Shown: in pieces, positions 5,323 through 46,789 of the stretch
How positions within the stretch are numbered: position 1 is the first letter of the stretch
Layout of the letters: every line of letters starts with the position of its first letter
Source: Patescibacteria group bacterium
GTDB taxonomy: Bacteria > Patescibacteriota > Minisyncoccia > 2-02-FULL-40-12
Reading direction: 5' to 3'
NCBI GenBank assembly: GCA_038063995.1
Contig: JBBTUA010000003.1
Coordinates: 1 to 63,041 of the forward strand
DNA length: 63,041 nucleotides
Translations under genes and position numbers: made by a program
Notes under the pieces: model-generated
The model's database searches: none
What the model was told of the DNA's origin: nothing
Seen by the model: the letters and a program-made list of their open reading frames with translations, nothing else

Positions 5323-6876
5323 ATGACCTCTAAAATATTCTCTGCCGCCATAATCGGCCTTGACGCCATTCCAATAGAGGTCGAAGTTGATGCCTCGCGC
5401 GGCCTGCCCTCTTTCAGCATTGTCGGCCTGCCGGATAAAACCGTCCAGGAGTCAAAAGACCGGATAAATTCAGCAATCAAAAATTCCGGACTGACCAATC
5501 CCAAAAAAGAAAATCTAAAAATTGTGGTCAATCTTGCCCCCGCGGATATTAGAAAGCAGGGGCCGCTTTACGATTTGCCGATCGCCGTTTCCTATCTTTT
5601 GAACACCAAACAAGTTGAATTTGACCATCAGAAAAAAGTTTTTGCCGGAGAGCTGGCCCTCGACGGCTCTTTAAGAAGCATATCAGCCGTTCTTTTGATA
5701 GCCCTGATGGCCCGCAACCTGGGGTTTAAAGAACTGATTCTGCCAAAAGCCAATGCCAAAGAAGCCGCTTTGATAAAAGATCTAAAAATCATCGGCCTTA
5801 ACAATTTAACTGAAGTAGCCGCCTATCTTTCTGGAAAAATTATAATCCAGCCCGAAAAAAACATTGATTTTTCAAAAATCATTTCCAATTCTGAATACGA
5901 TTTTGATATTTCCGAAATAAAAGGCCAGGAAACCGCCAAACGAGCTTTGTCTCTCGCCGCGGCAGGATTTCATAATGTATTGATGACCGGACCGCCGGGA
6001 GCCGGTAAAACAATGCTGGCCAAAGCCCTGCCCTCGATAATGCCCTCGCTTTCTATGGATGAGGCTCTTGAAATAACCAAAATACACAGCGTGGCCAACG
6101 CTTTCAAGTATTCGGATTCAAACGAACCAAAGAATTACATCATTAATCAAAGGCAGTTCCGGAATCCCCATCATACTGCTTCGGCCGTGGCTTTGGTTGG
6201 CGGAGGAAGCAATTTAAAACCGGGTGAAATAAGCCTGGCTCACCGCGGGATCTTATTCCTTGATGAATTTCCGGAATTTTCAAGAGATGTCATCGAAGCC
6301 TTGCGCCAGCCCCTTGAAGAAGGGAAAGTTTCTCTTTCAAGAGCCAATAATTCAGTTGCTTACCCGGCTAAATTTCTATTGGTTGCCTCAATGAATCCCT
6401 GCCCCTGCGGGAACCACCAAAACCCGCACAAAGAATGCCTCTGTACTCCGGGAGTAATAATGCGATACCAGAAAAAAGTATCGGGACCGATCTTGGACAG
6501 ATTTGATATTAAGCTCGATATACCCCAGGAAAATCCGAAAAAACTGAAGGAAGAGCCGGACTATAAAGAATCCGAAGAACTAAGACAAAAGGTTGAATTG
6601 GCCAGGGAAAAACAAAAAAGAAGATTCAAAGAACTTGGAATTTTAACCAACTCGGAAATGAATAACAAACAAGTGAGACGATTCTGTAAAATAGATGAAG
6701 AGAGCGAAAATTTTCTGGATAATTATGTGATGGATAAAAAACTAAGCCACCGGTCTTATTTCAAAATTCTAAAGTTGGCCCGAACCATTGCTGATTTGGA
6801 AGAAAGAGAAGATATAAGCCGGGAAGACCTCCAGGAAGCGGCAATGTACAAAAACGACTCGGTTCTGACGATTTAA
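5323..6876 (+). CDS. YifB/ComM-family Mg-chelatase-like AAA+ ATPase
   Basis: 517 aa; Lon-protease-like N-terminal domain, Walker A GPPGAGKT, LFLDEFPEF, C-terminal ChlI-type domain. Confidence 0.9.
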   Translation: MTSKIFSAAIIGLDAIPIEVEVDASRGLPSFSIVGLPDKTVQESKDRINSAIKNSGLTNPKKENLKIVVNLAPADIRKQGPLYDLPIAVSYLLNTKQVEFDHQKKVFAGELALDGSLRSISAVLLIALMARNLGFKELILPKANAKEAALIKDLKIIGLNNLTEVAAYLSGKIIIQPEKNIDFSKIISNSEYDFDISEIKGQETAKRALSLAAAGFHNVLMTGPPGAGKTMLAKALPSIMPSLSMDEALEITKIHSVANAFKYSDSNEPKNYIINQRQFRNPHHTASAVALVGGGSNLKPGEISLAHRGILFLDEFPEFSRDVIEALRQPLEEGKVSLSRANNSVAYPAKFLLVASMNPCPCGNHQNPHKECLCTPGVIMRYQKKVSGPILDRFDIKLDIPQENPKKLKEEPDYKESEELRQKVELAREKQKRRFKELGILTNSEMNNKQVRRFCKIDEESENFLDNYVMDKKLSHRSYFKILKLARTIADLEEREDISREDLQEAAMYKNDSVLTI

Positions 6877-7417: not shown

Positions 7418-8503
7418 TTAATACCTTGCAAACGGGTTTCGGGCGCCGTGGACTTCGAAATGCAAATGGCAGCCGGTTGAGAGACCGGTTGAACCCATTA
7501 ACCCGACAAGCTGTCCTCGTGAAATATTCTGTCCGCCTAAAACCAAGAGACGAGACAAATGGGCATATAAAGTATATATCTCATTGCCGTGATAAATTTT
7601 AATATATTTCCCGGCTCCGCCATTCCAGCCGGAATTTGCCGCTCCAATTATCACTCCTTCAGCGGCCGAATAAATCGGAGTGCCGCAAAGATTTGCCACA
7701 TCAACGCCGTTGCGGCCATGAATACGGCCCCAATTATGACCTTGCGCAGGCAAAAAAAGCAGTCCGCCTAAATCAGGCAAACGGGCAAATCTTACATTGG
7801 AACGATAAGCCACATACTGACTGCCGATCTGGATTTTGCCGTCAGGAACAATCAATTCCTTGCCTGCCTCAAGAGTTCCGTTTTTTGGCAAACTATTGAA
7901 TTCCACGATCTTTTCTTCGTTCGCCGAATATTTCTTGGCTATTGATTGAATAGTATCTCCCTGCTTCACAAAATGGATAACGCCTGAAACCGGAGGAATT
8001 TTCAATTCTTGACCCGAACTTAAATAATCGCTATCTTTTAGGTTGTTGGCCCAAATCAAAGAACTGACGCTGATGCCGAAATCATTTGCCACCTGACCCA
8101 AGGTATCGCCGGGCTGAACAGTATAATTAACAACCTGATTCCTTTCGCCGTTTTCAAAAACAGAAGCCAGCGTCTGATAAGGCAGAAATGAATCCTGGAA
8201 AACATTGCGGCTGGATTCAACACCAGCTTCCAAAGCCTGATAAACCTGGCCTAAAAATAAATCATTATCGCTTGGAATACGGGAATCAATAAAAGCCGAG
8301 GTTTCTTCAATATAATCTTCCACTGCCAAGCTTAAAAGAGTGGCCTGGCCCTGCCCGGAACTGGATTTAAAAGAAAAAAGAATGACCGTAAGAGCCACAA
8401 AAACAAAAATAACCAGCCTTTCATTTTCAGCATATGATTTGTACTTATTGAAGTTCCTTTTGAATAAACCAAAAAAAAGGACTGCTTGGGGGTTTTTAAA
8501 CAT
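7418..8503 (-). CDS. LysM-domain M23-family metallopeptidase (cell-wall hydrolase)
   Basis: N-terminal TM helix, two LysM repeats (YTVQPGDTLGQVA.., HFVKQGDTIQSIA..), C-terminal M23 motifs (HGRNGVD, HLHFEV). Confidence 0.85.
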   Translation of the reverse strand: MFKNPQAVLFFGLFKRNFNKYKSYAENERLVIFVFVALTVILFSFKSSSGQGQATLLSLAVEDYIEETSAFIDSRIPSDNDLFLGQVYQALEAGVESSRNVFQDSFLPYQTLASVFENGERNQVVNYTVQPGDTLGQVANDFGISVSSLIWANNLKDSDYLSSGQELKIPPVSGVIHFVKQGDTIQSIAKKYSANEEKIVEFNSLPKNGTLEAGKELIVPDGKIQIGSQYVAYRSNVRFARLPDLGGLLFLPAQGHNWGRIHGRNGVDVANLCGTPIYSAAEGVIIGAANSGWNGGAGKYIKIYHGNEIYTLYAHLSRLLVLGGQNISRGQLVGLMGSTGLSTGCHLHFEVHGARNPFARY

Positions 8504-21498: not shown

Positions 21499-23484
21499 GT
21501 GGAGGAGATTTTCAAAGAACTGAATCAAGGCCAGATTGAAGCGGTCCGGACCACAAAAGGGCCGGTTTTAATTATCGCCGGACCGGGCGCGGGAAAAACA
21601 AAAACCCTAACCCATAGAATCGCTTTTATGATTGGCTCGGGAATCAAACCGGAAAATATTCTAGCTGTTACCTTCACTAATAAAGCCAGCCAAGAAATGA
21701 AAGAACGAGTTAAAAAACTGCTGGGGACTCATCCTTCGACAAGCTCAGGCCGACTAACGGCGATGCCGTTAGTCGGCACATTCCATTCAATCTGCGCAAA
21801 GATCTTGCGAAAAGAAGCTAAAGCTTTGGGCTTTACTAAAAATTTCACTATTTACGACGAAGAAGATCAGTTGAATTTGATTAAAAAAGTTATAGAAGAA
21901 TTGGGGTTCGGGCAGAAAAATTTTAATCCCTACTCGATTCTAAACCGGATTTCAAAATTAAAATCTACTCTTATCGGCCCGGAAGAGTACGAAAAAGAGG
22001 CTGGAAATTATTACGAAAAAACAGTAAGCCAAATTTATTCTGCTTACAAAAAAGAACTTAAAAAAACCAATGCAATGGATTTTGACGATCTTATTTTAAT
22101 GACAGCCAATTTATTTCAAAACCATCCCCAAATTCTAGAAAAATACCAAGAACAATTTAAATATATTCTAGTTGATGAATATCAGGATACCAATGTAAGC
22201 CAGTATTTTTTGGTAAAGATGCTGGCTGGAAAATACGGGAATCTCTTTGCCATTGGAGACACTGACCAATCAATTTATACCTGGCGCTACGCCGACTTCC
22301 GCAATATGCTCAATTTTGAAAAAGATTTTCCGGAAGCCAAAATTATTAGGCTTGAGCAGAATTACCGCTCGACCAAAACAATCCTAGCCGCCGCCCAATC
22401 CCTGATTAAAAATAACAACTACCGCCACGAGAAAGAACTTTGGACTGAAAACGCTGATGGAGAAAAAATCCTGATCGCCAATCCTTACGATGAAAGAGAA
22501 GAAGCCAAATTCATCATTGAAGAAATGAAAGAACTGGTGAAAAAGGGCTATAAGCTCAAAGATTTTGTGATTCTTTACAGAACCCATGCCCAGTCGCGGC
22601 CGATCGAAGAAGAATTTTTAACCCAAGGATTTCCTTATAAAATTATCGGCGCCTTAAAATTCTACGAAAGAAAAGAAATAAAAGACATCTTGGCTTATTT
22701 GAGAATTTTGGCTAACCCAAATGACTTTGCCGCGATGCAAAGAATCTATAATGTCCCGGTCCGGGGAATCGGAAAAACGGCTTTTTTGCGGCTGACCGAA
22801 TTCAGCCGAAAAAATAACTTAGATTTTTTTGAATCCTTATTAAAATCAAAGGAAATCGAAAATCTGCCGCCGAAATCAAAATTCGCCTTATACTCTTTAG
22901 GCAAAACATCGGAAAAAATGGGTAAAAAAGCAAAAGAACTCCAGCTAACTAAACTAATAAAATTCATTACTGACGAAATTGGCTACAAAGAATACTTGGA
23001 CACTAAAACCGAAGAAGGGTATATGCGCTGGGAGAACGTAAAAGAGCTTTTAACCGTGGCTAAAAAATACGATTCTATTCCACCGGAAGAAGCGCTGGTT
23101 AAATTTCTTGAGGAAGTGGCTCTGGTCCAGGAAACCGAGAATATCGACGAAGACCAAAATGTGATCCATATGATGACTCTGCATTCAGCCAAAGGTCTGG
23201 AATTTCCGGTGGTTTTCTTGGTAGGGCTGGAAGAAGGCCTCCTGCCTCACTCGAGAAGTCTTGATAATCCGATTGAAATGGAAGAAGAAAGGCGGCTTTG
23301 CTATGTCGGGATAACCAGAGCCAAAAGAAGGTTATTTATCACTTTCGCCCGCTCAAGAAATATTTTCGGGACATCTTCCAAGGGCATCTCCTCAAGATTT
23401 TTAAACGAGATCCCTCACGAAACAATCGAAACCGCATCTAGCCTGGATCTTCCAAATGACGATGAAATCATTAATTACGCTTAA
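21499..23484 (+). CDS. pcrA: UvrD/PcrA-family ATP-dependent DNA helicase
   Basis: LNQGQIEAV, AGPGAGKT, VTFTNKAS.EM, VDEYQDTN, TLHSAKGLEF, YVGITRA motifs; GTG start. Confidence 0.93.
   Translation: MEEIFKELNQGQIEAVRTTKGPVLIIAGPGAGKTKTLTHRIAFMIGSGIKPENILAVTFTNKASQEMKERVKKLLGTHPSTSSGRLTAMPLVGTFHSICAKILRKEAKALGFTKNFTIYDEEDQLNLIKKVIEELGFGQKNFNPYSILNRISKLKSTLIGPEEYEKEAGNYYEKTVSQIYSAYKKELKKTNAMDFDDLILMTANLFQNHPQILEKYQEQFKYILVDEYQDTNVSQYFLVKMLAGKYGNLFAIGDTDQSIYTWRYADFRNMLNFEKDFPEAKIIRLEQNYRSTKTILAAAQSLIKNNNYRHEKELWTENADGEKILIANPYDEREEAKFIIEEMKELVKKGYKLKDFVILYRTHAQSRPIEEEFLTQGFPYKIIGALKFYERKEIKDILAYLRILANPNDFAAMQRIYNVPVRGIGKTAFLRLTEFSRKNNLDFFESLLKSKEIENLPPKSKFALYSLGKTSEKMGKKAKELQLTKLIKFITDEIGYKEYLDTKTEEGYMRWENVKELLTVAKKYDSIPPEEALVKFLEEVALVQETENIDEDQNVIHMMTLHSAKGLEFPVVFLVGLEEGLLPHSRSLDNPIEMEEERRLCYVGITRAKRRLFITFARSRNIFGTSSKGISSRFLNEIPHETIETASSLDLPNDDEIINYA
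21734..21776 (+). repeat. GC-rich hairpin segment in frame inside pcrA
   Basis: ccttcgacaagctcagg followed by a perfect 13 bp stem gccgactaacggc-gat-gccgttagtcggc. It shares a 15 nt string with 52723-52737. Confidence 0.6.
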
Positions 23485-24274
23485 AAAATCTCTTGGCCAG
23501 AATTTTTTAATCAATCCCCGGATTCTTGATAAAATTGTCAAGACGGCCGAGATTTCAAAGGAAGATATTATCCTGGAAGTGGGCCCGGGAACTGGAAACT
23601 TAACCGAGAAATTAGCTGAAACCCTTCGGCAAAGATCAGGACAAGGAGCCGGAAGAATTATCGCCATCGAAAAAGACCGAAGGCTGATTGAACCGCTTAA
23701 AGAAAAGTTTAAAAACACAAATGTAGAAATAGTTGAAGGCGATATACTCAAATTCAAAAATCAAATTTTAAATTTTAAAGATAATAAGTATAAAATAGTG
23801 GGGAATATCCCATATTATATAACGTCACGTTTCCTTAGGACTATATTTGAAAAATGGCCGCGACCTAAATTAGTTGTGTTAACTATTCAAAAAGAAGTCG
23901 CCCAAAGAATAGTCGCTAAACCCCCGCATATGAATCTACTGGCAGTTTCAATCCAATTCTTCGCTGAACCAAAAATAATCTCTTATATTTCGAAGGAAAA
24001 TTTTAGACCGATTCCAAAAGTTGACTCGGCGATAATAAAACTGACGCCAAGATCTAAATTCTATATTCTAAATTCTAAATCCTTCTTCAATGTTGTCCGA
24101 GCCGGATTTTCTCAAAAAAGGAAATTGCTCGTTTCAAACCTCGAAAAATCAGGCTTTAACAAAAACAGCCTCACGGCAAATTTTAAAAAACTAGGAATAA
24201 ATCCTGAATCCAGGGCCGAAAACTTAAGTATAGGCGAGTGGATAGAACTTTCGAAAATTCTTATAATTAAATAG
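23456..24274 (+). CDS. rsmA: 16S rRNA (adenine1518/1519-N6)-dimethyltransferase
   Basis: LGQNFL, EVGPGTGNLT, GNIPYYITS motifs. Confidence 0.92.
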   Translation: MTMKSLITLKKSLGQNFLINPRILDKIVKTAEISKEDIILEVGPGTGNLTEKLAETLRQRSGQGAGRIIAIEKDRRLIEPLKEKFKNTNVEIVEGDILKFKNQILNFKDNKYKIVGNIPYYITSRFLRTIFEKWPRPKLVVLTIQKEVAQRIVAKPPHMNLLAVSIQFFAEPKIISYISKENFRPIPKVDSAIIKLTPRSKFYILNSKSFFNVVRAGFSQKRKLLVSNLEKSGFNKNSLTANFKKLGINPESRAENLSIGEWIELSKILIIK

Positions 24275-24877
24275 ATGACCCGGAAAAGCATCGTTCTTCT
24301 TACAATTCTTTTTGCGGTTTTCCTGGCGCTTTCCATTTCTGGAAATAGCCCCTCGACTCAAAATCAATCTTTCAAACCCAAGACAGCTAACACTCCGAAA
24401 CCGAATCTTCTGCCTTTAGACTTTAAGACAGACATTCAAGCTGTAAAAAATTTCATATCTCCAACTCCTAGACCGGTTTCAACTCATTCTTTAGCTAATA
24501 AATCGGCCAGCAAATCTTTTGAATCATTAAAAGAATTGCAGAATTCACTGAATATTTCTTTGGATTTAACCAGTGGCGGCAGTCCTTTTGGCGGGAAAGT
24601 AACTTATCTAACAGGCTGCGATAACTATTGCGGTCCGCTTTTTTGCGGCCTAGCCTATGAATTAATTTCTGTCGGCCCTCCAGTTGGCGGCTCATTCACA
24701 TTAACCTATGGAACTTCGGTTTACAGAGAATTCGACGAATCAGTGGGGAATTGGGTTTTGGGCTTAACTACCGGAAACTCTGAAACTTGTTGGCAATGTA
24801 TAGTCACTTTTGAAGGACCGATTTGTGTACCCATTGGAGGAGGAGAAGAAATAAATATAATGGGCACAAGCAACTAA
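24275..24877 (+). CDS. secreted Cys-rich protein, unknown function
   Basis: 200 aa; signal-peptide-like N-terminus (LLTILFAVFLALSISG) and a C-terminal domain with 8 Cys; followed by a terminator. Confidence 0.55.
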   Translation: MTRKSIVLLTILFAVFLALSISGNSPSTQNQSFKPKTANTPKPNLLPLDFKTDIQAVKNFISPTPRPVSTHSLANKSASKSFESLKELQNSLNISLDLTSGGSPFGGKVTYLTGCDNYCGPLFCGLAYELISVGPPVGGSFTLTYGTSVYREFDESVGNWVLGLTTGNSETCWQCIVTFEGPICVPIGGGEEINIMGTSN

Positions 24878-24903: not shown

Positions 24904-24927
24904 AAACAGGTGACAACCTGTTTTTTT
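24904..24927 (+). terminator. rho-independent terminator
   Basis: aaacaggt-gaca-acctgttt followed by a T-run. Confidence 0.7.
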
Positions 24928-24935
24928 GATATAAT
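24927..24935 (+). promoter_or_regulatory. extended -10 promoter element TGATATAAT
   Basis: TGnTATAAT consensus match immediately after the terminator, ~50 nt upstream of the ATG at 24988. Confidence 0.45.
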
Positions 24936-24987: not shown

Positions 24988-26721
24988 ATGCCAACCAAAA
25001 TAAAAATTCTTCTTTTTACAATGATTGCCGGAGCGGGAATAATTGTTTTTTCTGCTTTCACCAATATTAAAAATTACGCAAATTTGGGAGCCAGTATAAA
25101 TAAGACAATTGATGGAAAAACCGTAAATTCTGCAAACCAAATAAATGAATTAAACAAACCGCTTAGCCAAAAAAGCGACATAGACAAAGACGGGCTCTTT
25201 GATGAAGAAGAGCCAATCTACCGGTCAGATCCGTTAAACCCGGATACTGACGGTGACGGCTTTCTTGACGGCGAAGAAGTTGCGGCCGGGTGCAGCCCTA
25301 TTTCCGCATCACAGAAAGATTGCCAGCTTAAACCGGGAATCAGCCAGACCAATCTCAACCTAACTGAATATTTTACTTCTCTCATAGTCGGCGGCTTTTT
25401 ATCCAAAGATCTTGATAAATCGGATCCTGGCTACTTGAAACATATTGATTCATTGGTTCAAGAAGCTTCCCAAATTAAAAAAACTCTTCTTTCCGCAGAT
25501 CAGCCTGATTTTGAAAAACAGAATTCAAATAAGCCGGAGTTATCAAATCAGGAATACCTAAATCAGTTTGAAAATATTTTAAGAAACCATTTTTTAAAAA
25601 AGAAGCCCAAAGGAATTCAAGCAAACTCTGACTTTGATTACTCGCCGTATCTGAAAGATGCGGGAACAACTTATGAAAAGCTGGCTAAGCTAAACTCGCC
25701 CAAAGAACTGGCTGAATTTCATAAAGAATCTCTGAATTTCTTTTATCAGCTGAAAAGTTATTTTTCGAATCTTCAAAATAAAGATGGGGACCCGATCAAA
25801 GCGCTTTTAAGTTTAGAGCAAACCGAACAGCTAACGGATAAATATAGAGCTTTCTTGAGTATCCTTCCGTTGCCAGGGATAGTGGTTCCGGTTGATGATG
25901 CCAGAGCAATACAGCTTTTGCATAATTTAAGAGATAAAGAACTAATAGACGATCCTGCTCAAAGAGCATTAGCCTCGGAAAACTTAAATTTAGCTACAAC
26001 TGAAATAATCCGCTTACTTCAGGCAATGGGCAGAAAAGGAGATATAAATGATACCGGCACTTTAAATATTTTCGTAGATAACTGGAGAAATTTTTCTCTT
26101 GAGGGCCAGTACCGGGCCGAAGATTTCTGGAGAGGCCTTCTTGATATAGCAGCAAACGGAACAGACACGGGAGTCCCCCCTCTGCTTTGCGACCATATAA
26201 GGAACAGCGAGGCCTTTAATGCGCTCCGTCCAAGAAAAATTGATAACCTAATCGAGAGCGGAATTCAAAGAAGAGTCGGTTCCTTACAGGAATACCTTGT
26301 CGCAACAAAATGCGATACTTTTGTTGATAAAAACTATGATATTTTTATGCAAGACTTTTCTGCCGGCGGAGGCTGGGATATGTGGTTTAAGTTAATTGAA
26401 CCGCAAAACAATATTTTCGGGGCAATTGATCTTGCTCTAGGTGAATTGAATCGACAAAGACAGGTCGAAGAACAATCTGATCTCCAAGAAGCAAATTCAG
26501 GCAGCGGCTATCTAGGCAGAAGACAATGTCTCTCCACTGGCTCCTCGGGGCAATGTGTCATATGGAGTCCTGTTAATATTCCGGCAAATCTAGCGGTCGA
26601 GGTATTGGGAGCGCTATTAAATCAAAATCTGGGCTGGATAGTTGCCACAGATGAAGCCGGGGAAGGATTTGGAATCGAAATAAACCAGGTAATAGAAGCG
26701 ATTTTCGGACCGCAGGAATAA
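24988..26721 (+). CDS. large membrane-anchored/secreted protein with acidic Ca-binding-type repeats
   Basis: N-terminal TM helix (ILLFTMIAGAGIIVFSAF). DKDGLFDEEE..DPLNPDTDGDGFLDGEE resembles thrombospondin type-3-like repeats; the rest is unassignable. The track start 24910 (GTG) lies in the terminator, so the ATG at 24988 is preferred. Confidence 0.6.
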   Translation: MPTKIKILLFTMIAGAGIIVFSAFTNIKNYANLGASINKTIDGKTVNSANQINELNKPLSQKSDIDKDGLFDEEEPIYRSDPLNPDTDGDGFLDGEEVAAGCSPISASQKDCQLKPGISQTNLNLTEYFTSLIVGGFLSKDLDKSDPGYLKHIDSLVQEASQIKKTLLSADQPDFEKQNSNKPELSNQEYLNQFENILRNHFLKKKPKGIQANSDFDYSPYLKDAGTTYEKLAKLNSPKELAEFHKESLNFFYQLKSYFSNLQNKDGDPIKALLSLEQTEQLTDKYRAFLSILPLPGIVVPVDDARAIQLLHNLRDKELIDDPAQRALASENLNLATTEIIRLLQAMGRKGDINDTGTLNIFVDNWRNFSLEGQYRAEDFWRGLLDIAANGTDTGVPPLLCDHIRNSEAFNALRPRKIDNLIESGIQRRVGSLQEYLVATKCDTFVDKNYDIFMQDFSAGGGWDMWFKLIEPQNNIFGAIDLALGELNRQRQVEEQSDLQEANSGSGYLGRRQCLSTGSSGQCVIWSPVNIPANLAVEVLGALLNQNLGWIVATDEAGEGFGIEINQVIEAIFGPQE

Positions 26722-26725
26722 ATTT

Positions 26726-28852
26726 ATGTGGATTTGGCTTTTAGTTACATTAGGTGTTCCCCTTCTGCTTTTTATGTTTAAAATAGGCATAGTTTTAGCT
26801 TTTGCTGAAATCATTATTGGAATATCAGGAAATCTTATTAATCAAGCAATCTATGCGCAGGACTTTTTCTTAAATCCGGAACTGCTTCAAACTATTTGGG
26901 CTCTTATTCGTGATTTTATAAATATCTTTTTTATTCTTATTCTCTTGGTCATCGCTTTTGCCACGATTTTTAATAAACCGACAGAATATACGGCAAAACA
27001 ATTACTTTCAAAACTTATCATCGCAGCTCTTTTGATAAATTTCAGTTTAGTCATCGGACTTTGGGTTATAGATATTCTTTGGACTCCGGCACAAATTTTC
27101 TATAACCCCTTAAGCAAGATTGAATCTGACGGCCAAAGAACTCCAATAATCACCGAGAAACTGGGTCAAGTACTGAAAATACAAGAATTTTTTGGAATAG
27201 AAAATTTAAACCCGAAAGATTTAATAATAGAGAAAATGACACCCCTAGGCCTTGGGGGAGTTGTTAACTTTGTATCTAGCCCTATAGAAAATAGCCTCAC
27301 CTTAATAATAAAAGGTTTCCTGATTGTTTTAGAAGCATTTATTTATGCCTGGATAGCTTTGATTCTTTGGGTAAGAATCCCGGTGCTTCTGGGGCTCATG
27401 CTAGTTTCTCCAATTGCCTGGCTCGGATACACTGTTCCTAATATTAAAAAACAGACTTGGAGCGCCTGGTGGCAACACTTATTCTGCTGGGCCGCGATTC
27501 CAATGATTATTTTCGGCCTTATTTACTTTACGATTCTTTTAGGCAATCAATTATCGCTGAAAATAGAAAATTTAAAGAGCACGACTCAAGGATCATTTTT
27601 AATAAAAGAGGTTCCCTATTTAGGCCTTGAAACCGGTACATTTATGGTATGGCTGATTACTTTTGGCCTTTTGTGGGGAGGTATGATTTATGTAAGAAGT
27701 TTGTCCTGCGGTTTATATGGTTGGGCGGAAAAAGGACTGAAAAAAACATGGGGATGGGCTGGAAAAACGAGGGATTGGGCTTATACTGCTTCAGGAGCTA
27801 AAGCCCCGATTGAAAAAGTCCAAAAAGAATTCAAAGAAGGAGGAATCCCGATCGCAGGAAGAAGATTCTTAGGAACTGCCCAAAGAGAAGCACGCGAGAC
27901 AAGAATTGAAGATCGGCTTAGAGCCTGGGCCGGTTTGGGCCCGACCTTCGCGGCCCAGAAAAATCTTTTAGATTCCGCGGAAAAGCAAACTAAAGATGTC
28001 GAAAATAGAATTAAACAGGCCCGGAATACTGATGAGTTGAAAAAAATTACTGATGAACTTAAAGAGACGGCTAAAAAAGGAAAAACGGATCCAGAAACTC
28101 TAGCCACGATCAATACTTTGGCTAAAAGAGGTGAATTGGATGTCGATTTGTTCAACCAAGCGGTTAATAATTTCAAAAATATGCCTCTGGCTTTAAGCAA
28201 AGTGATGACCGAATGGAAAGAAGGAAAGTTTGGCGGTATAACTTTGGATCAATTTATAGAAAAAATGAGAGATGAAGAAGGAAAACTATCACTTGATGCA
28301 AGAAGAGTAATGTACAGCTTCGCCGCTTCTGATGATGGTAAAAAAGTAGCAGAAAAAATGGAATATGAAGATTTTGATAAAGGCATACAAATCGTAGGTC
28401 AGCATACGAAAGCCGGCAGAGATTTCACTAAATTCTGGGGCGATTCCAATCCGCTTTATGTAGCAAAATATAGATTTGATAATATAACCGACCCGATAAA
28501 ATCTGGATATAGCCAAGAAGATCTGCAAAAAATTCAATCCCTTCAGGATGCAATCAGGGAACAGATGAAAAAAGCAAGCGTTAAAAATATCGGAGATTAC
28601 TTTCCCAAGACTTGGGACGGCAGCGAAGATATTGATGGTATAAAAATGGGAGAACGATTTGAAGGCGCGCTAGCGGCGATATTAAGAGAAAAACAAAATA
28701 GAGGGACGGCTACACAATTCGTTTCCGAGTTAAGAAGGAAGTTGCGTCGCGAAGGAAAAGACAAACAATTAGAAGTACTGAATGGGGTTATGAGGGATAT
28801 AGGAATGCAAGCCCCTGAAGTTATATACCAAGGGGAACAAACAGAATTATAA
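26726..28852 (+). CDS. polytopic membrane protein, VirB6/TrbL/PrgH-like position
   Basis: 708 aa; N-terminal ~350 aa with many hydrophobic helices, C-terminal ~350 aa charged and coiled. Located just upstream of the PrgI-like and VirB4-like genes. Confidence 0.5.
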   Translation: MWIWLLVTLGVPLLLFMFKIGIVLAFAEIIIGISGNLINQAIYAQDFFLNPELLQTIWALIRDFINIFFILILLVIAFATIFNKPTEYTAKQLLSKLIIAALLINFSLVIGLWVIDILWTPAQIFYNPLSKIESDGQRTPIITEKLGQVLKIQEFFGIENLNPKDLIIEKMTPLGLGGVVNFVSSPIENSLTLIIKGFLIVLEAFIYAWIALILWVRIPVLLGLMLVSPIAWLGYTVPNIKKQTWSAWWQHLFCWAAIPMIIFGLIYFTILLGNQLSLKIENLKSTTQGSFLIKEVPYLGLETGTFMVWLITFGLLWGGMIYVRSLSCGLYGWAEKGLKKTWGWAGKTRDWAYTASGAKAPIEKVQKEFKEGGIPIAGRRFLGTAQREARETRIEDRLRAWAGLGPTFAAQKNLLDSAEKQTKDVENRIKQARNTDELKKITDELKETAKKGKTDPETLATINTLAKRGELDVDLFNQAVNNFKNMPLALSKVMTEWKEGKFGGITLDQFIEKMRDEEGKLSLDARRVMYSFAASDDGKKVAEKMEYEDFDKGIQIVGQHTKAGRDFTKFWGDSNPLYVAKYRFDNITDPIKSGYSQEDLQKIQSLQDAIREQMKKASVKNIGDYFPKTWDGSEDIDGIKMGERFEGALAAILREKQNRGTATQFVSELRRKLRREGKDKQLEVLNGVMRDIGMQAPEVIYQGEQTEL

Positions 28853-28854
28853 AA

Positions 28855-29292
28855 ATGCCGACAACAATATACGAGTATAAAACTTACAATCCATATGATG
28901 TTTATTTAAACAGCAAGGGTCGAGATCCAACAAAAAATCTTCCCGAAAAATTTCAGGATTTTATTTTTGATGCCACACCAGCGGATTTCATTAAAGACCA
29001 AATTTCTGCGCCTTTAATCTTGAATGAAAACCAATCCCAAGAATTGGCAAAAATTGTTTTAGAACTGATTTTGGCCGACATTTATCTAGGAAATATAGTC
29101 CAAGAAATTAAAAATCGGCTGAAAATAACCGACGACCAGAAAGCGAAAACCATCGCCGGTTTGATTGTGAATGGCTTATTCGCTCCGATTCTGGAAGAAT
29201 TAAAGAAGATGCACATAGAGAAGTTTGCAAAGAACCTGCCAAAAACACCGCAGCAGGACGATAGAATAATTGATTTAAAAAATAACGTATGA
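28855..29292 (+). CDS. hypothetical soluble protein (145 aa) in the T4SS-like operon
   Basis: ORF abutting both neighbours (2 nt gap upstream, 4 nt overlap downstream); no family recognised. Confidence 0.55.
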   Translation: MPTTIYEYKTYNPYDVYLNSKGRDPTKNLPEKFQDFIFDATPADFIKDQISAPLILNENQSQELAKIVLELILADIYLGNIVQEIKNRLKITDDQKAKTIAGLIVNGLFAPILEELKKMHIEKFAKNLPKTPQQDDRIIDLKNNV

Positions 29293-29570
29293 GATTCCAA
29301 GTTCCCCAATTCATTGAAACTGAAACAAAAATAGTCGGCCCCCTGACCTGGAAACAATTCATCTGGGTGGCTATCGGAGTTGGCCTTTTGCTTCTTTTGT
29401 TCCGAATTGCTTCGGGCACTGTTTTTGTGTTTCTTTCGATCATAGTCATTGCCGTTTTCGGCGGCTTGGCTTTCCTTAGAATAGAAAACCTGCCTTTGAT
29501 AGAATATCTATCAAGGGCTTTGGGTTTTGCTTTAGGACCCAAAAAATACTTATTTAAAAAAGGAGAGTAA
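29289..29570 (+). CDS. PrgI/VirB3-like small two-TM protein
   Basis: 93 aa; MRFQVPQFIETETKIVGPLTWKQFIW N-terminal motif followed by two TM helices; directly upstream of the VirB4-like genes. Confidence 0.6.
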   Translation: MRFQVPQFIETETKIVGPLTWKQFIWVAIGVGLLLLLFRIASGTVFVFLSIIVIAVFGGLAFLRIENLPLIEYLSRALGFALGPKKYLFKKGE

Positions 29571-29574
29571 TGAA

Positions 29575-30177
29575 ATGGCAAAAGCCGCAACAACCACGCA
29601 ATTTGTAGAAATAAAGGAGATCCGAGACGATGTTTTGATTTTAAAAGACGGCTCTTTGAGACAACTCATCAAAATCGGCTCGACAAACTTTGAATTAAAA
29701 TCCCAGGATGAGCAAGCCGCAATTCTTCAGGGTTTCCGAGATCTGCTCAATGCTTTGGATTTTTCTTTGGAAATTATGGTGATGTCGAGAAAACTGAATA
29801 TTAACAAATATCTCGAATTTCTGGACGAAGTGGCTGAATCACAGCAAAACGAACTAATGAGGATCCAGGCCATTGAATATTCCAGATTCGTAAAAGAATT
29901 GACCCAGCTGGCTAACATTATGTCAAAGGATTTTTTCGTGGTTGTTCCATTTTATTTAGGCCCCCGAACAAAAGGAGGTATCAGGGAAATTTTTAAAAAT
30001 ATTTTTAAGCCGGGCCGAATTATCAGCCAATTGACGCCGGAAGAATTTGAATCGTATAAATCCCAGCTCAATCAAAGAGTTTCTCTGATTTATGAAAATC
30101 TGGCCGGCCTCGGACTTGGGGCAAGAATTTTAAAACAAGACGAGCTATTGAGTCTTTATCAACGGCTCTACGATTAA
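29575..30177 (+). CDS. VirB4-like N-terminal domain protein (separate ORF)
   Basis: 200 aa; pattern V.I..I.D..L..KDGS....I......F.LKS..EQ..I...F...LN.L.F...I resembles the N-terminus of VirB4/PrgJ-type ATPases. TAA stop immediately followed by the ATG of the next ORF. Confidence 0.5.
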   Translation: MAKAATTTQFVEIKEIRDDVLILKDGSLRQLIKIGSTNFELKSQDEQAAILQGFRDLLNALDFSLEIMVMSRKLNINKYLEFLDEVAESQQNELMRIQAIEYSRFVKELTQLANIMSKDFFVVVPFYLGPRTKGGIREIFKNIFKPGRIISQLTPEEFESYKSQLNQRVSLIYENLAGLGLGARILKQDELLSLYQRLYD

Positions 30178-31935
30178 ATGGACGAACAAAAAAACCAAAC
30201 CATAGACGAAATTCTGGCCCCTTCGGCAATAAGCGTTGCTTCAAACTACATTCAAGTGGGCGAGAAGCTTTCGAAAACTCTTTTTATTTCCGGCTATCCA
30301 AGATACCTGAATTCGAATTGGTTTTCGCCGGTGATAAATTTGGATCAGGAGTTAAATATCTCCTTTTACATCCATCCCGAGGATACGGTTAATATTTTAA
30401 GGAAATTAAGAGACAGGTTGGCCAAGCTTCAGGCCCAGGCAATCGAGGAACAGGAAAAAGGCAAAGTCCGCGACCCGGTTCTGGAAACAGCCATAAACGA
30501 TATCGAAATTCTGCGCGACAAGCTCCAGCTTGGAACCGACCGTTTTTTCAGATTCGGCCTTTATGTAACGATCTTGGGGAAAGACCAAAAAGAACTCGAT
30601 GAGACAGAAAAGATAATCAAGAACTCTTTGGAATCACAGCTGATTACGGTTAAACCGGCTACTTTCCAAATGAAAGAAGGATTTACATCTTCCTTGCCTC
30701 TGGGCAAAGATGAACTGGGAATCTCTTCACCCTTGAATACGGAACCGATTTCCTCAAGCTTCCCGTTTGTCTCGTATGATCTAACCCAAGATCAGGGTCT
30801 CCTTTACGGCATTAATATGCACAATAACTCTCTTATTCTGTTTGACCGGTTTAGCCTCGAAAATGCGAATCAGGTAGTTTTTGGAACGAGCGGCGGAGGC
30901 AAATCCTACACCGTTAAGCTGGAAATTCTCCGCTCTATTCTTTTCGGGACGCAGATTTTTGTTATAGACCCGGAGCACGAATACAAGCACGTGGCCGAAA
31001 CCCTCGGGGGCTCTTTTATAAAAATATCTATCGCCTCTGACAGCCATATCAATCCGTTTGACCTACCCAATCCCCGCGAAGACGAAAGTCCGGAAAATGT
31101 TTTTAGAAGCCACACTCTGGACTTGACCGGATTGATGAAAATAATGCTTGGGGAAATGACTCCTGAAGAAGAATCTATTCTTGACGAAGCCTTGATCCAA
31201 ACTTACGCCGCAAAAGATATTTATCCGGATAGGGATTTTTCTCAAAAAGAACCTCCTTTGATGAGCGACTTGCAAAATATCCTTGAGAGCATGACCGGAG
31301 CCCAGTCTTTAGCCACAAGGCTTAGAAAATATACTGAAGGGACTTTTGCCGGATTCCTCAATCAGCCGACTAATGTAATGCTTGATAACCAGCTGGTTGT
31401 ATTCTCAATCAGAGATATGGAAGACGAATTAAAACCCATAGCAATGTATCTGGTTTTGAATTTCGTCTGGACAAAAATCAGAAAAGAATTGAGAAAAAGG
31501 CTTTTAGTCGTAGATGAAGCCTGGTGGCTTTTAAAAAACGAAGCCGGCGCAAATTTCCTTTTGAATACGGCTAAAAGAGCCAGGAAATATTTCTTGGGCC
31601 TCACAACTATTTCCCAAGACGTCCCCGATTTCATAAATTCTCCTTACGGCAAACCCATTGTGACGAACTCGGCTTTGCAGCTTTTAACGAAGCAGAGCCC
31701 TGCCGGGATCGAAACAGTGAAAGAAACATTCAATCTTACCGAAGCCGAAAAAATAACTTTGCTGGCATCCCGAGTGGGGCACGGACTCTTTTTTGCCGGG
31801 CCAAACCACGTCGCCATTAAAGTGGTGGCTTCCTATACCGAAGACCAGATAATCACCTCTGACCCAAGACAGATACTGGAAATTAAGGAAGCGAAAAGAG
31901 CCTGGCTGAAAGATAATAGCGAATCGCATGCCTGA
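30178..31935 (+). CDS. VirB4/TrbE/PrgJ-like type IV secretion ATPase (C-terminal ATPase part)
   Basis: Walker A FGTSGGGKSYTV, Walker B LLVVDEAWWLL, GYPRYL motif near the N-terminus, ISQ sensor-like motif. Confidence 0.8.
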   Translation: MDEQKNQTIDEILAPSAISVASNYIQVGEKLSKTLFISGYPRYLNSNWFSPVINLDQELNISFYIHPEDTVNILRKLRDRLAKLQAQAIEEQEKGKVRDPVLETAINDIEILRDKLQLGTDRFFRFGLYVTILGKDQKELDETEKIIKNSLESQLITVKPATFQMKEGFTSSLPLGKDELGISSPLNTEPISSSFPFVSYDLTQDQGLLYGINMHNNSLILFDRFSLENANQVVFGTSGGGKSYTVKLEILRSILFGTQIFVIDPEHEYKHVAETLGGSFIKISIASDSHINPFDLPNPREDESPENVFRSHTLDLTGLMKIMLGEMTPEEESILDEALIQTYAAKDIYPDRDFSQKEPPLMSDLQNILESMTGAQSLATRLRKYTEGTFAGFLNQPTNVMLDNQLVVFSIRDMEDELKPIAMYLVLNFVWTKIRKELRKRLLVVDEAWWLLKNEAGANFLLNTAKRARKYFLGLTTISQDVPDFINSPYGKPIVTNSALQLLTKQSPAGIETVKETFNLTEAEKITLLASRVGHGLFFAGPNHVAIKVVASYTEDQIITSDPRQILEIKEAKRAWLKDNSESHA

Positions 31936-32380
31936 TATTAGAAAAAATCTCATTATAATTTGTTTTCTTTTAGTCGGGTTAGTCCTGATTCTTGTTTATC
32001 TTAACTTTAATACTCCCAGAAAAACCCAATCAGCCCAAATATTGGATAGCACTCCTGAACTAAAAGCTCTGCCTGAAAAAGAAACGGTAAAAGATGAATT
32101 TCTTAAAAACTTTGAGGAAGCGGTTTTTTCTCCAGACAGAAGAAAAATAGCTTACTTAAATCAAGGAGCTATTTACATATCTAATCCTGACGGCTCTGAA
32201 TCAAAAGAAATTCTAAAAACCAGAATAAAAAACCTGGAACTATTATGGCCGAAGCCAGAATTTCTTGTTTTAAAATCCGGAGAAAACGGCGGCCAAACAA
32301 TATTTTTAATAAATCTTGAAGACGGTAGCCTGAAAAAATTAGACGAACAAACTGGTTTTCCTGTAGAGAACCGAGAATAA
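31928..32380 (+). CDS. single-pass membrane protein, unknown function
   Basis: 150 aa; N-terminal TM helix, and an extracytoplasmic segment with a TolB/beta-propeller-blade-like SPDRRKIAYLNQGAIYISNPDGS. Overlaps the previous ORF by 8 nt. Confidence 0.55.
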   Translation: MPDIRKNLIIICFLLVGLVLILVYLNFNTPRKTQSAQILDSTPELKALPEKETVKDEFLKNFEEAVFSPDRRKIAYLNQGAIYISNPDGSESKEILKTRIKNLELLWPKPEFLVLKSGENGGQTIFLINLEDGSLKKLDEQTGFPVENRE

Positions 32381-33568
32381 GGCAATCGTAACCAAAATTT
32401 CAGTAACTAAAGTGGTGAAAGAAGCGCCGATATAAGAATATCTTGGGATTACCAAGAGATTGGCAAAAATGTTTAAGGCCGCTCCGGAAAGATAGATCCA
32501 CATCCCGAATTTTTGAAGCTCCAAAGCGATTAAAGCTTTCCCTGCCAAGTTATTCAAAAAAACCATACCAACGACAACAGCCAGAATTTTCAAAGGCAAG
32601 GCTGAATCCGCAAAACCCTGCCCTCCAAGAAGCAAAACAATCAGATCGGCAAAAACAATTAACCCGATAACAACCGGAATGGCCATTAAAAAAAGAAGCT
32701 TGAATGTTTTTTTAAATGCCCTATTAAAATCGTCCGCCTTTTTAAAAGCAAATTGAGAAAGCGAAGGCATAGACAATTCAACCAGCAGAGCCGGGAAAAA
32801 AATCAGTGTTTCGATAAGCTTGGCGGCCAGCCTGTATATCCCGACGTCAGAAACCGGCTTCATAAAAGAGAGCATTATGGCGTCGGTCCTAATGTAGATT
32901 GCGGTGAAAAGAATAGACAAGGCGACGGGCAGGGAACTTTTTAAGATTTTCCCGGCATAGGAAAAATCCAAACCGAGCCTGAATCGAATAAAACGGCGCG
33001 AGAAATAAAATACTAAAACGAATTGGACTCCGGCGGTTAAGGCGAGAACCCAAACAAAGGCCAAAAGATCAAAACCTGCTTTGACTCCGTAAAATACAAG
33101 ACCAAGCTGAATAAGTCTGGTCAGAACGTCTGAAAAGGAAACAAGGTAAAAAGTGCTGTATTTTTGGAATATGCCGCCTAGCACTTGGCTCAAAGACGAG
33201 AAAAATACAAACAAGGAAGCGACAATGATTCCGGTTTTTATTTCAGAAGAATACGGCAGGAAAAGAGACAAAGCTATAGCCAGTAAAACTACCAGCCCAA
33301 GCAAGATCAGCCTAAGAGTAAAGATATTCCCTGAAATAAATTCCTCTTTTTCAGGATGACGGGAAATCTCTCTAACATGAATAATATGAAGCCCGAAATC
33401 GGCTAAGATCGTAAAAATAAATAAATACGAGAGTATTGTCTCGTAAGCGCCGAAGCCCTCTTGCCCCAGATGCCTGGTTAAAAAACCTATGACGGCTAGG
33501 CCGATAAAAGCCGTTATTACTCTTGAAACCGAGGCGGCAAAAAAATTTTTGTAGATTGAGGTATTCAA
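32339..33568 (-). CDS. MOP-superfamily polysaccharide/lipid flippase (Wzx/MurJ-like)
   Basis: 409 aa; ~12 hydrophobic helices with typical polysaccharide biosynthesis protein layout. Confidence 0.7.
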   Translation of the reverse strand: MNTSIYKNFFAASVSRVITAFIGLAVIGFLTRHLGQEGFGAYETILSYLFIFTILADFGLHIIHVREISRHPEKEEFISGNIFTLRLILLGLVVLLAIALSLFLPYSSEIKTGIIVASLFVFFSSLSQVLGGIFQKYSTFYLVSFSDVLTRLIQLGLVFYGVKAGFDLLAFVWVLALTAGVQFVLVFYFSRRFIRFRLGLDFSYAGKILKSSLPVALSILFTAIYIRTDAIMLSFMKPVSDVGIYRLAAKLIETLIFFPALLVELSMPSLSQFAFKKADDFNRAFKKTFKLLFLMAIPVVIGLIVFADLIVLLLGGQGFADSALPLKILAVVVGMVFLNNLAGKALIALELQKFGMWIYLSGAALNIFANLLVIPRYSYIGASFTTLVTEILVTIALFSVLYRKTSLFV

Positions 33569-43450: not shown

Positions 43451-43966
43451 TTAAGCGATGTCTTCCTTTAGATTAGTGCTTACTTCTTCGACTTCTTCTT
43501 GGTCGTCCAGAGCTTCGATCAGCTTATCCAGTTTTTCTTGATTAGACGCGTCAATCGCGGCTGGCTGGCTGAACATCCATGAGAGGCTGTCGGGCTGGAC
43601 CATTTTAGAGCCGAAGTCATTAAGTATTTTTTTAACTTCGGAAATAGTCCGGTTTCGGCTATCTGTTATCGCTCTTATTCTCAAAGCCGTTCCGCCGGGC
43701 CCCAAGGCTTCAATCGTCAGCTCTTCTAACTGGGCTTGGTCTTTGTCTGAAATTTTTTTGATCGCCCTCTCGATATTTTCTCCCGGCATATTATTGGTTT
43801 TTGCTTGTTCTATTGCCTGGGCCAGCGCTTGATTTGTTTTGGGGTCAGCGCCCTTTTTGGCGGCCAAAGTTATTAATCTGGATAGTTTAGAAAAAATCTG
43901 ACCTTTCTTTTTGTCGGTTAGGGCTTTTTTATGACGAATTTGCTGCCAGCGATTATGTCCGCTCAT
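43451..43966 (-). CDS. YebC/PmpR-family protein (short, 171 aa)
   Basis: MSGHNRWQQIRHKKA..D.KKG..F.KL...I..AAK.G.DP..N..L motif. It is shorter than the usual ~240 aa. Confidence 0.8.
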   Translation of the reverse strand: MSGHNRWQQIRHKKALTDKKKGQIFSKLSRLITLAAKKGADPKTNQALAQAIEQAKTNNMPGENIERAIKKISDKDQAQLEELTIEALGPGGTALRIRAITDSRNRTISEVKKILNDFGSKMVQPDSLSWMFSQPAAIDASNQEKLDKLIEALDDQEEVEEVSTNLKEDIA

Positions 43967-45361: not shown

Positions 45362-46789
45362 TTAGCTGGATCCAAGAACCCTGTGAATCTCATCAAGATC
45401 GGTTATTCCTTCCAAAACTTTTAAATATCCGTCTTGAAGCATTGTTATCATTCCTTTTTTATCAAGCAGGCCTTTAAATTCAGTAATATTCGGGGTTTGG
45501 AGAATGAATTTCTCTATTTCCGGTTCCATTTCAAAGGCTTCAAAAATTCCTATCCTGCTTTTATAGCCTGTAAAATTGCATTTCTCGCAGCCAGCCGCTT
45601 TAAAAATCATAAATTTGTGTTTTTTAGGCACTGGATTTTTATCCAAATTTTTTAAAACAGAATTTATTTTTTCGATTTCGGCATCTTCGGCCGAAACTTC
45701 TTTTTTACAATCTTCGCATAATTTTCTGACCAGTCTCTGGGCCATGGCGATATTCATCGCTGGAGCAATTATTTGGGGTTTAACGCCCATATCAATCAAT
45801 CTTGGAATGGCTCCGGCCGCATCGTTGGTGTGCAGAGTCGAAAAAACTAAATGTCCGGTAAGGCCTGCGTGCAGCGCTGTTTCGGCGGTTTCAGCATCTC
45901 TTATTTCTCCAACCAGAATAACGTCAGGGTCCTGTCTTACTATGGATCTTAGCCCGTTTGAAAAATCATATCCCTTTTCCGGTTCAACTTGAGTTTGTGA
46001 TACTCCTTGAATTTTATATTCAATGGGGTCTTCGATGGTTATTATCTTCACTCCCGGTTCGTTCGCAAAATTAATAAAAGCATAAAGGGTCGTAGTTTTG
46101 CCTGATCCTGTCGGCCCGGTCGTTAAAATCAAACCAGTAGTTTTTTTCAGTCCTTTCTTAATTTTCTCAAGCAGGCCGCTCCTTATGCCTAATTCTTCCA
46201 AGCTTTTTTTGATAGTCTTGGGATCCAGGAGCCTCATTGCAATGCTTTCGCCGTAAGCTCCCGGAAGTGACGAGACCCTTACTTCAATATCGCCGCCGCT
46301 TCTTTTAACGGTGAATCTTCCGTCTTGGGGCGCCTCTCTTATGTTTATTTTCAGGCCGGCGATGAGTTTGATCCTATTTAAAAGAGCTGGATAGTCGTTT
46401 TTAGGAAAGTCCAGAATATCCTGCAGGACTCCGTCTATCCTGAATCTTAACCTAATACGTTTGTCTTCAGGTTCAAAGTGGATATCCGAAGCTTCAATCG
46501 AAATTGCTCCGCCAAGCAGGAATTCAAGGCTTTCCGTTGTCTGTGTCTGGGCTATTTTAGTCTTGAGATCCTGTATATTTTTTACTTCTTTTTCAAATTG
46601 ATTCAGCTTTTCCTGGCCAAGATTTAACTCACCAAGCCTGGTTTCTTTGAATTGAACTTTGGGAGGACTTGCCTTTTCGGTTAATTGGGTCGTTTCCCCG
46701 CTTTCCCGTCTTCTTATTTCCTGGAGCTTCAATTCTAATTTTCTTTCTTTTTTAGGATCCGGGAATTTCGGAGTTGGAGTGCTAGACAT
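45362..46789 (-). CDS. GspE/PilB-family type II/IV secretion (pilus assembly) ATPase
   Basis: Walker A TGPTGSGKTTTL, Asp box, Walker B ILVGEIRD, His box and a C-terminal tetracysteine C..C...C..C. Confidence 0.9.
   Translation of the reverse strand: MSSTPTPKFPDPKKERKLELKLQEIRRRESGETTQLTEKASPPKVQFKETRLGELNLGQEKLNQFEKEVKNIQDLKTKIAQTQTTESLEFLLGGAISIEASDIHFEPEDKRIRLRFRIDGVLQDILDFPKNDYPALLNRIKLIAGLKINIREAPQDGRFTVKRSGGDIEVRVSSLPGAYGESIAMRLLDPKTIKKSLEELGIRSGLLEKIKKGLKKTTGLILTTGPTGSGKTTTLYAFINFANEPGVKIITIEDPIEYKIQGVSQTQVEPEKGYDFSNGLRSIVRQDPDVILVGEIRDAETAETALHAGLTGHLVFSTLHTNDAAGAIPRLIDMGVKPQIIAPAMNIAMAQRLVRKLCEDCKKEVSAEDAEIEKINSVLKNLDKNPVPKKHKFMIFKAAGCEKCNFTGYKSRIGIFEAFEMEPEIEKFILQTPNITEFKGLLDKKGMITMLQDGYLKVLEGITDLDEIHRVLGSS

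Follow-up and report, generated by a model that had tools for sequence, protein, structure and literature searches.

A seven-gene locus beside ksgA and dnaA that probably encodes a reduced version of the Patescibacteria type IV secretion system

Described systems and their comparison with the present locus

An unusual type IV secretion system (T4SS), encoded by SEML1_0006-0019, was reported to be essential to Southlakia epibionticum for its growth as an epibiont (Wang et al. 2023; PMC10633639), and it is the only experimentally tested member of the Patescibacteria T4SSs. It resembles Gram-positive conjugation systems without their coupling and relaxase proteins, and the published tables list VirB4, a gene in the TrsD position, PrgI, VirB6-like proteins, an NTF2-like protein, lysozyme/peptidase genes and six pilins (PMC10633639). 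A survey of 3,035 genomes found VirB4, TrsD, PrgI/VirB3, VirB6 and VirB2-like proteins to be widespread, placed the Patescibacteria VirB4 as a clade nested in monoderm MPF-FATA, located the Paceibacteria T4SS locus near dnaA, dnaN, ksgA, rnpA and rpmH, and proposed a repurposing away from conjugation, possibly to bring in DNA or other macromolecules (Quiñonero-Coronel et al. 2025; PMC12102498); a 2025 review gives the same picture (PMC12857230). Here we describe a cluster of seven genes in a 63,041-nucleotide stretch of contig JBBTUA010000003.1 (the whole of which is hereafter called the window). Judged from its sequence, the cluster is very likely the T4SS already described for the Patescibacteria, in a reduced Paceibacteria-type version, and no new kind of machine. 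What the present analysis adds is the assignment of a TrsD protein, a fused gene for a 577-residue protein, a layout without a pilin, and two conserved partner families whose predicted folds have no relative among solved structures.

The likeness to the Patescibacteria clade of PMC12102498 lies in gene content (VirB4, a separate TrsD, PrgI/VirB3 and VirB6) and in setting, namely a chromosomal location without a nearby relaxase or type IV coupling protein (T4CP) and with ksgA, rnpA, dnaA and dnaN as neighbours. The best curated family of the window VirB4 is of the MPF-FATA type (CD1110). A VirB2-like pilin is frequent, although not universal, near virB4 in that clade, whereas none was found in the 63 kb of the window. 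In S. epibionticum ML1, VirB6, PrgI, a TrsD-like protein and VirB4 are encoded in matching relative order at the chromosome start, but that system includes a lysozyme/CHAP protein, a peptidase, six VirB2-like pilins, an additional large protein of the VirB6 type and an NTF2-like protein, and the window locus yielded none of these.

Among the MPF-FATA conjugative systems, prgH-prgI-prgJ of pCF10 has the same B6-B3-B4 core order, which a previous sequence-only reading of this DNA had recognized, and the trsC-trsD-trsE genes of pGO1/pIP501 offer a parallel for the separate TrsD, which precedes VirB4 as in pGO1. Unlike these systems, the window locus lacks a relaxase, a T4CP, a PrgK-type hydrolase, a PrgL/VirB8-like protein and an adhesin, and is not located on a mobile element. 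The diderm MPF-T systems, R388 Trw and Agrobacterium VirB, possess homologous VirB4 (TrwK) and VirB6 (TrwI) proteins and a common VirB3-VirB4-VirB6 inner-membrane logic; in contrast to them, the window locus has no VirB7/9/10 outer-membrane core, VirB2/5 pilus, VirB8, VirB11 or VirD4, its VirB4 is split, and its VirB6-like protein bears a hydrophilic extension of ~390 residues.

An inner-membrane and ATPase core with a split VirB4

The ORF listing of the window gives seven same-strand open reading frames (ORFs) tightly packed at positions 24988-32380, which form an operon (Table 1). Their junctions are, in order, +4, +2, -4, +4, 0 and -8 nt, exactly as the sequence-only reading had them, and all seven ORFs are intact. 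The operon encodes an inner-membrane and ATPase core, consisting of a VirB6-like protein, PrgI/VirB3 and a VirB4 split with TrsD, together with three lineage-specific partners. For comparison, genome contigs were scanned with VirB4 and 590 relatives were confirmed by tblastn; the comparisons given here use the best 80 loci. These are all from metagenome-assembled genomes of uncultured bacteria, with VirB4 proteins 54-87% identical, and most are titled Patescibacteria or one of its groups, with Parcubacteria/Paceibacteria-type names dominating.

The 585-residue product is a VirB4 ATPase that comprises the middle and C-terminal P-loop domains. It matches NCBIfam conju_CD1110 over profile positions 182-733 (E 8e-108; 361.7 bits, the curated cut-off being 325) and, in Pfam, P-loop_TraG, AAA_10 and CagE_TrbE_VirB; among solved structures, it matches the VirB4 C-terminal domain 4AG5 (E 1.5e-44) and R388 TrwK (E 2e-8). 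Walker A (GTSGGGKS) and Walker B (LLVVDEAWW), the motifs from which the sequence-only reading had identified the protein, can be read intact in the sequence. The 200-residue product encoded just upstream corresponds to the VirB4 N-terminal domain as a polypeptide of its own: it matches VirB4_plasma over positions 101-230 (E 5.8e-11), CD1110 over positions 4-112 and the TrsD/TraD family, and its orthologues behave in the same manner, with matches to VirB4_plasma in 27/27, to CD1110 in 24/27, to TrsD in 21/27 and to VirB4_CagE in 10/27. The score against NCBIfam TrsD is 19.6 bits, with a curated cut-off of 200, and therefore indicates homology and not equivalog membership. No VirB4 structure was matched by TrsD in the searches of solved structures, whether as a profile or as a single sequence; the assignment rests on NCBIfam. 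TrsD and the 585-residue protein jointly cover full-length VirB4, and the TAA of the former abuts the ATG of the latter. TrsD is a separate ORF in 79 of the 80 related loci; the split is therefore ancestral and not an assembly error.

The 93-residue product is the PrgI/VirB3-like protein that the sequence-only reading had proposed (PF12666, E 3.2e-12; 47.3 bits against a gathering cut-off of 27), so that in the profile hidden Markov model (HMM) searches both VirB4 and PrgI matched above curated cut-offs. Its gene, whose start overlaps the preceding gene by 4 nt, is present in 74/80 related loci, and TrsD alone lies between it and VirB4. For the 708-residue product, the previous assignment to VirB6 is supported indirectly. 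Its residues 13-321 contain 6-8 predicted transmembrane (TM) segments, and the remainder is a charged, hydrophilic C-terminal domain of ~390 residues. PF19590 (TrbL_3) or PF04610 (TrbL/VirB6) occurs in many of the 193 homologues, the latter being matched directly by 6 of the 35 aligned members of the family, and the top match of the family profile in the PDB is R388 TrwI/VirB6 (7o3v; E 8e-4) over the conserved TM region. These results suggest that the protein is a divergent, extended VirB6/TrbL.

Two further features were noted within the core genes. An antisense ORF of 161 residues (29108-29593, minus strand) overlaps the 145-residue and prgI genes and led astray a simple gene caller that picks the longest ORF. 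The 80 loci contain no relative of it, and it was taken as spurious. At the 3' end of prgI, just before trsD, a hairpin with a 12 bp stem is followed by a T-rich run (29492-29518, plus strand; about -21 to -23 kcal/mol, z about -7). As a candidate regulatory element it was rejected, given that it is not conserved in L001-L005 or in more distant loci, and it is probably incidental.

Table 1. Positions in the window of the genes and signals discussed in the text
Feature	Position	Strand	Basis
577-residue membrane-anchored protein, two-gene fusion	24988..26721	+	PF18884, TM prediction, homologues
708-residue extended VirB6/TrbL-like polytopic membrane protein (putative)	26726..28852	+	homologues and family profile
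145-residue soluble partner, predicted all-helical	28855..29292	+	family HMM, AlphaFold2
93-residue PrgI/VirB3-like two-TM hairpin protein	29289..29570	+	PF12666
200-residue TrsD-like protein, VirB4 N-terminal domain as own polypeptide	29575..30177	+	NCBIfam
585-residue VirB4 ATPase, middle and C-terminal P-loop domains	30178..31935	+	NCBIfam, Pfam, PDB
150-residue TM-anchored fragment of beta-propeller (TolB/PD40-like) partner family	31928..32380	+	family HMM
200-residue secreted Cys-rich protein (sec200)	24275..24877	+	ORF listing
Terminator-like hairpin (8 bp stem, loop of 4) with T-run, ending the ksgA-sec200 unit	24904..24927	+	consensus match only
Extended -10-like box, putative operon promoter	24927..24935	+	consensus match only

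A constant chromosomal slot and a lineage-specific reduction

The host belongs to the Patescibacteria (candidate phyla radiation, CPR) and has a Paceibacteria-like chromosome and a reduced, ultra-small genome. In the 80 loci, the consensus order begins with uvrD-ksgA-[577a-577b]-VirB6-[145 family]-PrgI-TrsD-VirB4 and continues with [c14]-[c4]-[c5]-[propeller family]-(jag)-yidC-rnpA-dnaA-dnaN, where c14 (~168 residues, TM), c4 (~341 residues, secreted) and c5 (~310 residues) are families encoded after VirB4. The window has the corresponding flanks, namely uvrD/pcrA, rsmA/ksgA (23456-24274), a Polysacc_synt/MurJ-type flippase gene (32339-33568, minus strand), jag, yidC, yidD, rnpA, dnaA (35568) and dnaN; rsmA and the flippase gene had been correctly named as neighbours before. 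dnaA starts ~3.2 kb downstream of the last operon gene. The count of DnaA boxes (TTATCCACA, at most one mismatch) was uninformative, with 15 matches against 12.5 expected, so that the proximity to the origin rests only on the dnaA/dnaN/rnpA/yidC cluster. The constancy of the slot uvrD-ksgA-[T4SS]-yidC-rnpA-dnaA-dnaN across 80 genomes indicates vertical inheritance and not an integrative and conjugative element (ICE).

This evidence also bears on the notion that the locus is a remnant or part of a conjugative ICE or plasmid with its DNA-processing genes outside the window, which we consider very improbable. VirB4 does score above the curated cut-off of CD1110, a family named for conjugative elements, and the gene order is like that of pCF10. 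However, the identical chromosomal slot, from ksgA to yidC/dnaA, is occupied in dozens of species-level genomes, and the G+C content of the cluster (0.38-0.43) is no different from that of the flanks. No Pfam domain of a relaxase, a T4CP (VirD4/TcpA) or an integrase was found in any large ORF of the 63 kb, which likewise contain no repeat borders, and in Patescibacteria as a whole relaxases occur in only 103 of 3,035 genomes, rarely near virB4 (PMC12102498). The sequence-only reading had described a chromosomal locus without relaxase, coupling ATPase, pilin or integrase, and this description stands for the 63 kb. With regard to the pilin, the small TM ORFs of the window gave no PF18895 or PF04956 match, and Pfam returned only DoxX and unrelated weak matches for them. 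The seven products themselves gave no match, in Pfam or NCBIfam, to a hydrolase (VirB1/PrgK/TrsG) or a VirB8-like NTF2 protein.

Relative to the consensus, three changes are specific to the lineage of the window: the three genes after virB4 are missing, the propeller gene is shortened, and the two genes upstream of VirB6 are fused. The c14, c4 and c5 families come after virB4 in about 62-64 of the 80 loci, but none of them occurs in the whole window, in L001, in L003-L005 or in the part of L073 that was sequenced, where the contig stops right behind the propeller gene; the HMM of the pilin-like family, run on six-frame ORFs of the window, gave no match. L002 and L005 still have a small TM protein resembling c14. 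A c5 representative matches T4SS_pilin (PF18895; E 9e-6) with 26.1 bits, just under the cut-off of 26.6 bits. With the T4SS_pilin-like c5 absent, this lineage therefore lacks the VirB2-like pilin gene, which in most Paceibacteria is retained within the locus. The reduced layout is common to the window and several diverged relatives (L001-L005 and L073), and its persistence in them argues for a stable, selected state.

An alternative is that the system is decaying, i.e., that the pilin and other extracellular parts have been lost and the core is heading to pseudogenization or minor use. The absence of c14, c4 and the T4SS_pilin-like c5 from the whole window and the cutting of the propeller partner to 150 residues, with the highest ratio of non-synonymous to synonymous substitution (dN/dS), are in line with this alternative, but we regard it as unlikely: the seven ORFs with their coupled junctions are intact, as are the Walker motifs, VirB4 and TrsD are 87% and 80% identical to those of L001, and the reduced layout is kept in the diverged relatives. 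The dN/dS values against L001 range from 0.02 (VirB4) to 0.42 (150-residue protein); dS is saturated and the values are rough, so that only "well below 1" is to be taken from them.

Other variation was observed among the related loci. In many of them, the series of T4SS genes is interrupted, between the 145 family, PrgI, TrsD and VirB4, by genes that specify 23S rRNA-intervening-sequence proteins (PF05635; a four-helix bundle; E 4e-28), as in L012 (7746-8117 and 8696-9082), L008, L009, L025, L027 and others; none occurs in the window. In many loci (L015, 2055-3134, minus strand; L017, L019, L023, L030, L080 and others), ksgA is separated from the T4SS genes by a gene on the opposite strand, whose secreted product has PG_binding_1 and IPT/TIG domains; this gene is also absent from the window.

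At the upstream border, the raw sequence contains the hairpin AAACAGGTGACAACCTGTTT (24904-24923) with a T-run after it, and the extended -10-like box TGATATAAT follows. Both signals had been pointed out before and are present as consensus matches. In a scan, 26 terminator-like sites were counted where 14.2 were expected, and there was no enrichment of promoter-like sites. The closest relatives, L001 and L003, do not share the hairpin, although both have a TATAAT-like box in the corresponding spacer. The ATG at 24988 is the likely start of the 577-residue ORF, because an alternative GTG at 24910 falls within the hairpin and the homologues begin with MPTKIK. The sequence-only reading had counted the upstream secreted protein, sec200, as a component. 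Its gene abuts ksgA and lies before the terminator-like hairpin, and sec200 is therefore probably outside the operon, possibly as an accessory; it has no Pfam or NCBIfam match, and homologues in the same orientation were found only in L001 and L003, with related genes elsewhere on the opposite strand.

The rest of the 63 kb is housekeeping DNA (PNPase, RNase III, TrmD, PolA, Fpg, RecG, RuvABC, TyrRS, PBP1, NusA, trigger factor and others). It also encodes a PilB-like T2SSE ATPase (45362-46789, minus strand; E 2.5e-115), a ComM/Mg-chelatase-like protein (5323-6876, plus strand) and a LysM+M23 peptidase (7418-8503, minus strand), the sole M23/LysM peptidase of the window, 17 kb from the cluster. 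These three proteins, of the type IV pilus/competence and wall-remodelling kinds, might cooperate with the T4SS. An ORF of 1149 residues (59500-62949, minus strand) carries Peptidase_S74, the endosialidase intramolecular chaperone, at residues 887-951 (E 9e-12) and may specify a large fibre-like surface protein in this reduced genome. The YebC/TACO1-family gene directly upstream of ruvC (43451-43966, minus strand) encodes only 171 residues; of its second Pfam domain, only positions 1-61 out of 160 are matched, and the product looks C-terminally truncated.

Partner families and the proposed role of the machine

The sequence-only reading had considered the partners of the core unassignable. This no longer applies to the 200-residue TrsD. 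The 577-residue protein is a two-gene fusion, and the predicted folds of the 145-residue and 577-residue proteins match no solved structure. The 577-residue protein (PF18884, E 3.8e-7) has a single predicted TM segment, at residues 7-25. Besides this TM anchor, its N-terminal half contains a helical domain and two TSP3 repeats of the Ca-binding type (PF18884), and is homologous to proteins of ~320 residues; its C-terminal half is helical with conserved Cys and is homologous to proteins, also of ~320 residues, with a TM segment of their own. Database homologues match one half or the other, and only P0122 and P0123 are fused likewise. In most loci that extend far enough upstream, the 577a and 577b genes lie side by side directly upstream of VirB6. 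In some relatives, discoidin and Ig-like surface domains are part of the C-half protein. This argues for a role outside the cell, and the 577-residue protein is probably extracellular. The AlphaFold2 (AF2) monomer model is all-helical with a predicted local distance difference test score (pLDDT) of 69, and its best Foldseek matches were no better than E 2.4 (PDB) and E 0.4 (BFVD).

The 145-residue protein has no signal peptide. Synteny points to a constant partner: in 59 related loci, which are essentially all those with enough upstream DNA, its family HMM detects a member in the interval from VirB6 to PrgI, and a profile search of a 1.84-billion-protein library yielded 459 representatives. 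In a single case, P0283 (748 residues), VirB6 has the 145-residue domain fused at its C-terminus, an arrangement compatible with a cytoplasmic site of action of the 145-residue protein next to the C-terminal domain of VirB6. What looks like a fusion between the 145 family and PrgI in L034 (950-2230) was discarded as an artefact, in which a masked run of N bridges both parts. The AF2 monomer model has seven helices (pLDDT 80.6; predicted template modelling score, pTM, 0.70), and its best Foldseek match in the PDB is no better than E 2.4; hhalign comparison of the family with pCF10 PrgE, PrgF and PrgG gave no similarity, these being single-sequence targets of low power. The 145-residue and 577-residue families are conserved partners, and the folds predicted by these models have no match among solved structures.

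The third partner, the 150-residue protein, belongs to the beta-propeller family that sits between the T4SS genes and yidC in most loci. The family HMM matches positions 31910-32377 (E 2.8e-16), and the protein and its family give weak TolB, DPPIV_N and beta-propeller matches. Its length of 150 residues compares with 277 in L001 and a median of 420 elsewhere, and its dN/dS of about 0.4, with dS saturated, is the highest of the set.

From established knowledge of T4SSs, i.e., the R388 structure and the monoderm systems, we infer that VirB4 and its detached N-terminal domain, TrsD, would form a cytoplasmic motor docked on PrgI/VirB3 and the VirB6 channel. The 145-residue protein would be a cytoplasmic accessory working with the VirB6 C-terminal domain, and the 577-residue and 150-residue proteins would project through the wall towards the host cell. 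Such a machine would transport macromolecules between epibiont and host and, by analogy with Southlakia, would be needed for host-dependent growth; it would not serve conjugation. The suggestion of the sequence-only reading that this may be a machine for DNA uptake or cell-to-cell delivery coincides with a hypothesis already published (PMC10633639, PMC12102498).

Several points weigh against our interpretation. The 708-residue protein of the window itself has no Pfam match, the comparison of its family with pCF10 PrgH (hhalign, E 0.07) is not significant alone, and its identity as VirB6 depends on transitive homology and on a marginal profile match (E 8e-4). A T4CP, a relaxase or a pilin could be encoded outside the 63 kb window, and partial decay could lie behind the short propeller gene and its relaxed dN/dS. 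Extrapolation of essentiality or mechanism from Southlakia is weak, because the window is without the pilin, the hydrolases and the NTF2/VirB8-like protein of that system.

The main rival reading, which seems to us possible but doubtful, is a DNA-import machine, that is, a T4SS working in reverse like archaeal Ced or Helicobacter ComB and scavenging DNA or nucleotides of the host for a genome without the capacity to make them. Import of DNA or other macromolecules has been proposed for these systems (PMC12102498), there is no relaxase or T4CP in the window, the window encodes the ComM-like and PilB-like proteins, and VirB4 is weakly similar to CedB (E 1.6e-13). The CedB score, however, is 50.2 bits against a cut-off of 700, far under the CD1110 score; CedD reaches 21 against 600, no other Ced or ComB family was matched, and no CedA or ComB-specific partners were recognized. 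In Southlakia, ComEC-dependent DNA uptake is dispensable and the T4SS is essential (PMC12857230), which neither proves nor excludes import through the T4SS. Between import on the one hand and protein export or surface assembly on the other, we slightly favour the latter.

To our knowledge, no T4SS other than that of the Patescibacteria has been reported to be essential for the organism that bears it. In the present sub-lineage, the genes of the locus kept under purifying selection number only seven, and none of them is for a pilin, a hydrolase or a VirB8-like protein, which narrows the candidates for the minimal functional core. Tentatively, and from sequence comparison, the window together with L001-L005 and L073 might represent a natural minimal T4SS that works without a VirB2-like pilin, a hydrolase or a VirB8-like protein, has the 145-residue and 577a/b proteins as core subunits, and is the smallest set for a host-dependent lifestyle. 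If this were true, the 145-residue family (cytoplasmic, seven-helix) and the 577a/b families (extracellular, Ca-binding) would be Patescibacteria-specific core subunits of the machine. The 145-residue and 577-residue families are targets for structural work together with VirB6, PrgI, TrsD and VirB4.

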